DNA of 64,000 bases. It comes from Salinispira sp. Lineage in GTDB: Bacteria > Spirochaetota > Spirochaetia > DSM-27196 > Salinispiraceae. A program made the translations under genes and the position numbers. Location of the stretch: the NCBI GenBank assembly GCA_965226555.1, contig CBDDDG010000021.1, forward strand, positions 192,001 through 256,000. The letters are read 5' to 3'. The notes beneath the pieces were generated by a model. The model made no database searches, was not told the DNA's origin, and saw nothing but the letters and a program-made list of their open reading frames with translations. Below, piece by piece: positions 43,128-44,275 of the stretch (positions are counted from its first letter, which is position 1; every line of letters starts with the position of its first letter).

Positions 43128-44275
43128 ATGATCGATTTCAAAGAAAAACCCGCCCCCGTTCCCTACGACCAAGGCTACCGATCCCTGCTGTTCCAACCCG
43201 CAATAATGCTCCAATTTCTTCAACGCTTTGTTGGAGGCGCATGGACAAAAAAGCTGCGCCGTGAAGATATTACCATCGAAAACGGTACCTTTTTCATTGA
43301 CCATGCGAAAACACGAATGGCCGACATTGTCTGCAAAATAACGCAGAAGGATCACACGGGAGATGTTGCTATCTATGTGCTCCTTGAGCATCAGTCTGGA
43401 GTGGACAAAGACATGCCCATCCGCATGTCGGAATATACGAATCTTCTCTATCGGAACATTCACCGCTCCGGCGCAATTCCCGATGACTGCGAATTGGTAT
43501 TTCTGCCCATTGTATTCTATAATGGAACGAGAAAATGGAAGGTGCCCGGGAATGTCAGAAAGCAACGGAAGCGGAAATTCCCGCAGTATCTTGCTCCTTT
43601 TCCCTACGATCTTATTAGCGAGAACGATTATTCTGCGGAACAGCTACAGCAGCGGGGAAGAATGTTTGCGGCTGTTATGTACCTTGATCTGTACTCGAAA
43701 AATCTGCTGAATACGGATTGGGACATTCGGAAGGTAGAGAAAGCGATAGCAGAAATGCTGAATGAGGAATCGCTGGAGCTGATAAAGGAATTTATCGGCG
43801 TGGTAGATTCTATGTTTGGAATTGTTATAGACTTCGATACGTTAATGAACCAATTAGAAGCAAAGTTTTGCCAGAGGCAAAACTTTCTATAAAATTGGAG
43901 AATGCTAAGCACAAAGAAAGCATTCCAAATTTGAAACTTTTGCTACTGGAAATTGTGCTTGCACAATTTTCCAATGCAAAAGTTTCAGAAAGAACAAAAG
44001 AACCGAGAGGTAAGGAGGTAGCAAAAATGTTCAGAATGAATGCGGAAACATTCAGAGCGCGCATTGCGGAGATGGGTCGGCAGGAAGGACTTCAGACAGG
44101 ACTGCGAACAGGTCGGCAGGAAGGACTACAGACAGGTCGCGCGGAGGGGCATATTGAGGAGCGGAGAAAAAACGCCCGCAGTATGTTTTCCATAGGACTT
44201 TCAGCAGATGACGTTCGGAAGGTTACCGGGCTGAGCGATGAGGAAATGCGGACAGTGCGGAACGGATCGCAGTAA
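43128..44275 (+). pseudogene. Rpn-family nuclease disrupted by the 126-bp element
   Basis: Near-identical to 21724-22728, but a net 131-bp insertion after ...QLE introduces a stop and frameshift. The C-terminal ORF 44027-44275 keeps its own AAGGAGGT SD. Confidence 0.92.
43861..43986 (+). mobile_element. 126-bp three-hairpin MITE/REP-like element (full copy)
   Basis: Absent from the paralogous Rpn genes (empty site caattAGAAAgaac); flanked by AGAAG and AGAAA; hairpins H1-H2-H3. Confidence 0.88.

Follow-up and report, generated by a model that had tools for sequence, protein, structure and literature searches.

What is the 126-bp sequence that interrupts an Rpn nuclease gene of the spirochaete Salinispira sp., which enzyme moves it and what becomes of the genes that receive it? 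These questions are raised by a locus near 43.9 kb of a stretch of 64,000 nucleotides (hereafter the window), which corresponds to C21:192001-256000, i.e., positions 192,001 to 256,000 of contig CBDDDG010000021.1 of assembly GCA_965226555.1; labels such as C1, C6 or C10 designate contigs of the same genome. As argued below, this sequence is probably an IS5-dependent MITE (a miniature transposable element with inverted repeats; for a general definition, see the available part of PMC3184786) moved by IS-A, an insertion sequence (IS) residing in the same genome.

The insertion in the Rpn gene

The inserted copy and the gene that it interrupts comprise the following features, ORF standing for open reading frame and RBS for ribosome-binding site:

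43056..43892 (+): ORF of an Rpn/YhgA-like nuclease, the predicted RpnL, which a TAA in the element shortens to 278 aa
43856..43860 (+): AGAAG, target duplication on the left side; the empty allele has AGAAA, so that one base is changed beside the element
43861..43986 (+): full 126-bp MITE, H1-H2-H3, GC-loop subtype, within the Rpn gene
43861..43887 (+): H1, a 27-bp hairpin with the left terminal inverted repeat as its left arm
43868..43895 (+): sigma-70-like TTGCCA-16-TAAAAT (10/12) facing the small ORF, a consensus match only
43900..43925 (+): H2, a 7-bp stem with a 12-nt loop, GGAG just before
43933..43986 (+): H3, a 54-bp imperfect palindrome with the right terminal inverted repeat as its right arm
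43987..43991 (+): AGAAA, target duplication on the right side
44012..44275 (+): AAGGAGG RBS and intact 82-aa C-terminal ORF (44027-44275) with 4-residue repeats, the predicted RpnS antitoxin

The original prediction placed three copies of a three-hairpin element in the window, and all three are found where it put them, at 43861-43986 (+), 56991-57116 (-) and 51076-51202 (+, 127 bp, diverged). The window however contains 11 members of the family, not three. DNA folding confirms the three hairpins, with z = -6.6 to -7.5 in the full copies and -3.0/-3.7 in the diverged copy; the size of about 52 bp given for H3 has to be corrected to 54 bp. No part of the window matches a known structured RNA of Rfam at gathering score. 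Unnoticed in the original prediction, the outer arms of H1 and H3 are inverted repeats of each other, and the element is bounded by terminal inverted repeats of 11-12 bp, [G/C]AAAGTTTTGC on the left and GCAAAAGTTTC on the right. Furthermore, one and the same 11-mer bounds H1 as well as H3, so the end motif also recurs inside the element.

The 5-bp target duplication was confirmed as well, since the filled site reads AGAAG[126]AGAAA and Rpn paralogues carry the empty allele TTAGAAAGAACA; in the paralogue at C1:333249, the element lies between perfect AGAAA/AGAAA repeats. In the same way, the 57-kb copy is flanked by TATAA/TATAA, as read on the + strand. The Rpn insertion is found at the identical site in 10 paralogous loci distributed over five contigs, with flank differences specific to each locus, which disfavours a one-off misassembly.

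Genome-wide copies and target duplications

BLAST retrieved 80 full-length copies from the genome (73 of 125-127 bp, three of 168-169 bp and four of 111-120 bp), whose assembly is 93.5% complete. A scan for the individual modules led to 382 H1, 248 H2 and 414 H3 units grouped in 577 clusters, which cover 43,340 bp or 1.45% of the genome. Site statistics were restricted to the 462 clusters with complete flanks in which both ends could be recognised, 115 clusters being dropped; these 462 elements correspond to 339 independent sites, 29 of which recur in paralogous genes.

A perfect 5-bp direct repeat flanks the element at 86 of the 339 sites, against a mean of 2.6 and a maximum of 7 in 200 shuffles of the flanks. 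Repeats of 2, 3 and 4 bp stay within the shuffled range, repeats of 6 bp occur at three sites (shuffled maximum 2) and none of 7-9 bp was found. The canonical H1-H2-H3 sites have a perfect 5-bp duplication in 12 of 24 cases, and the outer end pair [G/C]AAAGTTTTGC / GCAAAAGTTTC is present at all 15 duplication-flanked sites of 120-130 bp. Forty-six different 5-mers are duplicated, and 127 of 172 begin with T and end with A (T-N-N-N-A). The search for further copies that had been proposed as a check thus gave consistent ends and 5-bp duplications, and the description of a non-autonomous, mobile, MITE-like element is upheld for this multi-copy sequence, which is 126 bp long and includes no transposase gene. 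The nine 126-bp copies that have perfect duplications share 91-99% identity, a level that suggests recent spread.

Direct comparison of filled and empty alleles is possible at 30 sites. Beyond the element itself, the net gain is +5 at 20 of them, +4 at five, +3 at two, and +2, +6 and +7 at one site each.

IS-A as the probable mobilizer

The original prediction left the mobilizer without a name. A candidate was found outside the window by looking throughout the genome for distant pairs of MITE ends sharing a 5-mer. Seven pairs lie 1.4-3.4 kb apart with a 5-bp repeat. One of them led to IS-A, a 1,340-bp IS5-family element (C10:181971-183310), while the six others, which surround host genes, Rpn genes or an IS3, were rejected as fortuitous; IS-A excepted, this search gave no pair of terminal inverted repeats with a duplication enclosing its own transposase. 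The IS-A protein scores 228 bits with NCBIfam NF033581 (cut-off 140) and exceeds the cut-off of PF01609, and its 364-codon frame is open at seven loci. Ten copies of IS-A have both ends, six of them being 1,340 bp long; a perfect 5-bp duplication flanks seven of the ten and is absent from three.

The ends of IS-A, GAAACCTTTGCA and TTCAAA(G/A)GTTTC, agree with the ISPg1/ISNme1-like type GAGACC(A/T)TTGCA ... T(T/G)CAAAGGTCTC given in Table 2, the part used here, of PMC4596501. This placement was made from the profile and the ends, the protein itself being compared with ISAba23 alone. The common MITE ends are identical to those of IS-A at 11, 10 or 9 of 12 positions. Identity is 7-9/12 with IS-B, a second IS5 element that has 5-bp duplications in 5 of 5 cases, 5-8/12 with IS-C and with an IS encoding a 491-aa protein, and 2-4/12 with IS3, IS481 and an IS encoding a 314-aa protein, in agreement with the earlier statement that the ends resemble neither IS3 nor IS481. 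T in first and A in fifth position characterize 127 of 172 MITE duplications, 13 of 14 IS-A duplications (p=0.19) and 3 of 10 IS-B duplications (p=0.006), the IS counts having been entered by hand; the target bias of the MITE fits IS-A more closely than IS-B. When both MITE ends have the twelfth base of IS-A, A, the duplication is found at 33 of 55 sites, compared with 2 of 18 when they have C (p=3e-4) and 14 of the 47 other sites with perfect ends.

The ends, the 5-bp duplication and the T-N-N-N-A bias together suggest that the IS-A transposase would move the 126-bp element in trans, and IS-B, whose ends are related, may contribute to this movement. The element resembles, and on every feature tested here belongs to, the IS-dependent MITEs of the ISPg1/ISNme1-like IS5 group.

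Several observations weigh against this interpretation. A perfect duplication is missing at 253 of the 339 sites, although many are degenerate and their boundaries were drawn automatically. Many left ends start with C and not with the G of IS-A, and the duplication rates are alike (27/66 vs 28/61). The interior of the MITE has no similarity to IS-A, a search with IS-A having given no MITE match, so that no parent element was found. The DNA of the element was not found in any of the 60 relatives searched. Finally, only five of the 20 sites with a net gain of +5 have perfect duplications and the changes lie next to the element, which is not what plain cut-and-paste predicts.

Other candidates agree less well. 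IS3, IS481, the 314-aa IS, the 491-aa IS and IS-C were rejected because their ends and duplication lengths disagree with those of the MITE, and the IS-B copies found beside MITEs, considered as parents, proved to be hosts or neighbours. An IS110/IS1111-dependent MITE was discarded because PF01548 (IS110) has no match in the genome and the duplicated 5-mers are of 46 different kinds. The Rpn genes have no link to the element ends. Rpn proteins are moreover argued, in the available part of PMC10400941, not to be transposases, so the Rpn genes are considered here as hosts and not as mobilizers.

Two observations concern IS-C as a host. In the pair C6:2470 and C21:310740, one IS-C copy holds a 27-bp form of the element flanked by CAAGA/CAAGA while its partner is empty. 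At a second IS-C site, a full element is present in one copy, its counterpart showing what resembles a deletion scar of it.

Junctions, short forms and alternative routes of movement

Strong hairpins, modular arrays and sites without a clean duplication could also suggest an element of the REP (repetitive extragenic palindrome) or PATE (palindrome-associated transposable element) type, moved as single-stranded DNA by a hairpin-reading HUH enzyme (Y1 or RAYT, the REP-associated tyrosine transposase). The search for a RAYT gene that had been proposed gave nothing, PF01797 (Y1/RAYT) having no match in this genome, of which 93.5% is covered. To our knowledge, insertion by HUH enzymes makes no target duplications, whereas the variable 5-bp duplications found here are far above chance and the ends match an IS5 element. 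Movement by such an enzyme is therefore regarded as extremely improbable. The imperfect junctions raise another alternative. At the 20 sites with a net gain of +5, comparison with the empty allele gives five perfect and 15 imperfect duplications. Mismatches at positions 1-5 number 1, 1, 1, 7 and 7 on the left and 7, 10, 2, 2 and 0 on the right, so that 31 of 38 changes affect the two bases adjoining the element, for a flank background of 2.9%. A second insertion route could account for this pattern if about two donor-flank bases per end were carried into the target, either through a 5' overhang or through a circle spacer whose crossover lies near its middle; the mobile unit would then be 130-131 bp and the duplication 0-1 bp. 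Such carry-over can be likened to the overhangs of piggyBac, and our literature search found no paper tying piggyBac-like noncanonical behaviour to IS5. The new bases are recurrent (A/T-G on the right, A/G-A/C on the left), and the affected sites mostly lack a T-N-N-N-A target and have a GC-loop H1. However, many new bases, as judged by eye, copy nearby element sequence, as template switching would: AGT extends the inner arm of H3, and the left junction ACA, reverse-complemented, gives TGT. Furthermore, net gains other than +5, from +2 to +7, occur at 10 of the 30 sites, no IS110, Y1, Tn3 or IS1595 gene was found in the genome, and IS-A (7/10) and IS-B (5/5) make clean duplications. Carry-over of donor bases thus appears improbable, and template switching at old insertions is preferred as the cause of the imperfect junctions. 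Should the transposase be the cause, this would add a new feature to IS5 chemistry.

The short forms could in turn suggest that the hairpin of 25-27 bp and the palindrome of 54 bp can transpose on their own, the 126-bp element being a composite of two such units. Perfect duplications are indeed found at 27 of 126 sites of the 25-28-bp class and at 22 of 88 sites of the 52-60-bp class, and an empty allele exists for two of the 27-bp sites (C6:2470 and C21:394438). Nevertheless, long and short forms share a single site in paralogues: one paralogous site has forms of 25, 54, 55, 125, 126 and 235 bp, and others have 54/126/153, 54/97/124/125, 27/39 or 27/98 bp. The duplication-flanked short forms carry the outer end pair of the full element in 17 of 27 cases and H1's own pair in two of 27, and a 13-bp near-direct repeat accounts for deletion. 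A length of 27 bp is too short for two transposon ends to pair. In addition, the sizes published for prokaryotic MITEs go from about 50 bp up, according to the available parts of PMC11602168 and PMC4596501. There is consequently little chance that the 126-bp element is a composite. The several lengths per site and the outer ends on short forms lead us to read the forms of 25-54 bp as probable in-place deletion derivatives, those of 25-27 and 54 bp arising by deletion between internal copies of the end motif. Four palindromes of 20 bp, in which two end motifs adjoin each other and which have no duplications (C1:76590, C10:567806, C18:21567 and C21:351125), are a possible precursor or end product of H1.

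Paired changes in the hairpins

The compensatory pair change reported in H3 is real (6/6 in a 12-copy alignment). Among the 44 distinct full copies in which this pair is readable, 34 have T-A, nine have C-G and one has a mismatch; over all H3 units, the pair is mismatched in 23 of 160. The conclusion that the element is structure-dependent does not follow. Both sides change in only two of the 42 pairs of the 12-copy alignment, and the 45 distinct full copies reveal loop inversions (AA 17/TT 9; TCT 13/AGA 1; AAAAT 17/ATTTT 1) as well as six cases in which one arm was overwritten by the opposite arm. These inversions and this arm homogenisation indicate template switching rather than structure dependence. 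Both the paired changes and the loop flips would thus come from switching on DNA templates, with which the "compensatory" change is compatible, structural selection not being required. Bacterial template switching producing such arm corrections is described in the part of PMC5941160 available, and arm homogenisation with spacer inversion in that of PMC8604942. The covariation score does exceed that of shuffles (0/500), but it involves two pairs (pair count 116/500) and 12 related copies; it was not accepted as evidence of selection on RNA structure.

Consequences for the Rpn genes

By analogy with the genes within genes of Zhong et al. (PMC10400941, available in part), the 43.9-kb locus is predicted to combine a truncated toxin with an intact antitoxin. 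The genome has 177 Rpn loci, some tandem ones perhaps being merged, which belong to seven families and occupy 151 kb or 5% of the genome; 135 of them cover at least 200 aa. The element lies within 51 of these 135 long loci, largely because filled genes were duplicated. The number of distinct sites is about 11 after merging by eye, and four of them, in four families, are located 0-10 codons upstream of the predicted RpnS start. The probability of such clustering under a uniform distribution is 3e-4, in a post hoc calculation that ignores base composition.

One explanation would be that the element is kept as a regulatory cassette, which provides a promoter, an RBS or a start codon and makes Rpn toxin-antitoxin genes antitoxin-only. 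Besides the four families hit at the same boundary, at three boundary sites the small ORF has stayed open, in 10/10, 16/17 and 4/4 copies. An RBS and ATG are found within 30 nt of the element at 19 of 86 sites (matched null 7.9, maximum 18) and within 15 nt at nine of 86 (null 4.0, maximum 11), with gene calls from a crude home-made caller (2,428 genes), and the orientation follows that of the genes in 24 cases against 10 (p=0.024). The sole early ATG of an RpoS-like gene, described below, also lies inside a remnant of the element. On the other hand, the TAAAAT hexamer in -10 position is present in all 10 copies of the Rpn site of the window and in none of 21 copies at the two others. Sigma-70-like promoter matches number one for 0.7 expected, no better than in shuffles, so a general provision of promoters was rejected as weak. 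Moreover, one insertion in Rpn family 3 parts the RBS from its ATG, and A+T-rich targeting plus tolerance account for the pattern without any benefit. We consider it unlikely that the element is kept as a cassette. The Rpn insertions would persist as the toxic long protein is cut and the small antitoxin ORF is spared, and would spread by duplication of Rpn genes. Tolerance plus A+T-rich targeting would be sufficient, a benefit to the host being possible.

These insertions hint at a route by which a genome overloaded with nucleases could lose toxins and keep antitoxins. In addition, more than 100 near-identical Rpn paralogues, offering filled and empty alleles in one assembly, form a natural test bed, which reveals an element shrinking and growing in place and non-random changes of the adjoining bases. 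In Rpn family 2 (e.g., C21:282282), an in-frame insertion of 129 bp (124 + 5 bp) is found just before the motif IEHK, which we take to be catalytic; it has a single TAG in 14 of 14 copies.

The RpoS-like sigma factor gene

A 93-bp remnant lies in an RpoS-like sigma gene (47620-48564, +) located downstream of a flgJ-like gene and whose best match, TIGR02394, is below cut-off. The remnant is inserted in frame after codon 8 and introduces a TAG. Its AGGAG is followed 6 nt on by an ATG (47659) that opens a 301-aa ORF; this ATG results from an AAG-to-ATG change in the H2 loop that is rare (3 of 135 H2 copies). The next Met of the gene is 154 codons past the element. The remnant therefore appears to supply the start codon of the RpoS-like gene and is predicted to add 26 residues to the sigma factor. 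Among six RpoS-like loci of relatives, four have short N-termini of 10-15 residues, like the interrupted native one. The sequence TGGCA..TTGC upstream of the gene is presumably a sigma-54 promoter-like motif. This gene is a candidate for the takeover by a MITE of the translation initiation of a regulator.

Stop-free frames are found in six of the 462 elements; none lies evidently within an interrupted host gene. There are two N-terminal cases. In the FlgD-Ig/OmpA gene at 896-4777, H3 abuts the RBS and a 27-bp H1 is in frame in the first codons.

A bolder scenario would combine several of these proposals: an IS5-type transposase carrying donor-flank bases, with chimeric duplications new to the family, and moving 27-bp units, in a host that has co-opted the element at more than one third of its Rpn genes (four families at the toxin/antitoxin boundary) and for the RBS and start codon of the RpoS-like gene. 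Such a combination is judged improbable as a whole.

Other family members and neighbouring sequences

The other family members of the window, and an intact Rpn paralogue, are the following:

4684..4797 (-): H3 abutting an RBS, and 27-bp H1 in frame within the initial codons of gene 896-4777
6352..6396: H1-H1 form, 45 bp
12110..12136: degenerate 27-bp short form
13887..13913: 27-bp short form, TATAT/TATAT
15983..16009: 27-bp short form, TATAT/TATAT
21586..21678 (+): H3-H2 form, followed by an unrelated second repeat of 41-42 bp
21724..22779 (-): intact Rpn paralogue, whose protein reads across the empty site (…MNQLERTKEPRG…)
32018..32044: degenerate 27-bp short form, duplication 4/5
47646..47738 (+): 93-bp H2-H3 remnant in the RpoS-like sigma gene
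51076..51202 (+): diverged 127-bp copy upstream of rho, without duplication
56991..57116 (-): full 126-bp copy, AT-loop subtype, with perfect TATAA/TATAA (56986-56990, 57117-57121)

The window also has three long genes with ankyrin repeats and two genes for fn3/DUF285 surface proteins, at 6426-15995, 23216-25207 and 40693-42699, a profile typical of host-associated bacteria; the ankyrin genes have 27-bp forms at matching upstream positions. The second repeat, G+C-rich and 41-42 bp long, has 87 matches of at least 34 bp among 101 (e.g., C19:23827 and C14:189042) and a fragment in the window at 23135-23160. It forms tandem arrays and is found within the 168-169-bp variant of the MITE as well as in frame (14 codons) in several IS-B transposases. 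Lastly, an IS481-like element (window ~55680-56930, at least 24 other matches) often lies between 10-bp direct repeats that are out of register with its ends (e.g., C21:370962 and C18:18220).

Distribution and comparison with known elements

The H1 pattern was not found in 300 genomes of the phylum, two patterns of the element gave no match in metagenomes, and no copy was found in the plasmids and phages searched. The IS-A protein was not found at E<=1e-30 in any of 98 further genomes of the order; apart from those within this genome, its closest relatives in the database are about 50% identical to it. A scan of genome contigs gave four distant loci only. The sequence of the element thus appears to be new in the sets searched, to which ISfinder and the MITE catalogue of PMC11602168 did not belong. 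The novelty announced earlier holds for the sequence and not for the kind, IS-derived hairpin MITEs of IS5 being already published. Among the classes first proposed, MITE stands, REP/RAYT falls as no Y1 gene was found, and likeness to Rickettsia palindromic elements is limited to one N-terminal fusion, the other insertions bringing stops or frameshifts.

REP sequences, bacterial interspersed mosaic elements (BIMEs) and their RAYTs, as well as the PATEs of IS200/IS605, are characterized by hairpin modules, mixed arrays, high copy number and mostly non-coding flanks. These features are also seen here, whereas the 5-bp duplications and inverted ends of IS5 type set the Salinispira element apart from REPs and PATEs, and no Y1 gene was found. 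Rickettsia palindromic elements insert in proteins in frame and without stops as a rule. The element described here shares their palindromic character and has one open frame, but its insertions in coding sequences mostly bring a frameshift or a stop, the in-frame Rpn one having a TAG in 14 of 14 copies; these Rickettsia elements are a topic of PMC3184786, available in part.

Among host genes, the Rpn genes resemble the genes within genes of PMC10400941 by their nuclease domain, their internal RBS and ATG and the 4-residue repeats of the C-terminal ORF. At least 135 loci are found here, 51 of them with the MITE, compared with 26 in a high example of the part of that paper available. As regards spirochaetes, MITEs are abundant and IS1106-like ones are among the commonest ISfinder matches, according to the accessible part of PMC11602168.

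The closest known elements belong to the IS5 family. ISAba23, from Acinetobacter plasmids, has the same left end as IS-A, GAAACCTTTGCA, which is identical to the MITE end at 11 of 12 positions, and its transposase is 46% identical to that of IS-A; it is autonomous and about 1.25 kb long, and the single copy inspected has no duplication. In the part of Klein et al. used here (PMC4596501, Table 2), the ends of ISPg1 are GAGACCATTGCA/TTCAAAGGTCTC, those of ISNme1 and of the MITE BrickBuilt being of GAGACCTTTGCA type. BrickBuilt and MITEPgRS from Porphyromonas gingivalis and ATR from Neisseria meningitidis are MITEs of this ISPg1/ISNme1 group. Like them, the Salinispira element has 12-bp ends of GA(A/G)AC(C/T)TTTGCA type in common with a resident IS5, filled and empty sites, and no transposase remnant; one copy of BrickBuilt also has a 5-bp duplication. 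As a class, the element is therefore ordinary, IS5-dependent hairpin MITEs being already published. It differs from the members of this group described in the same source by a copy number about 30 times higher (577 clusters vs about 19), an interior made of copies of the end motif and not of a minisatellite, lengths that form a series between 25 and 235 bp and changes of the duplication that are proximal to the junction.

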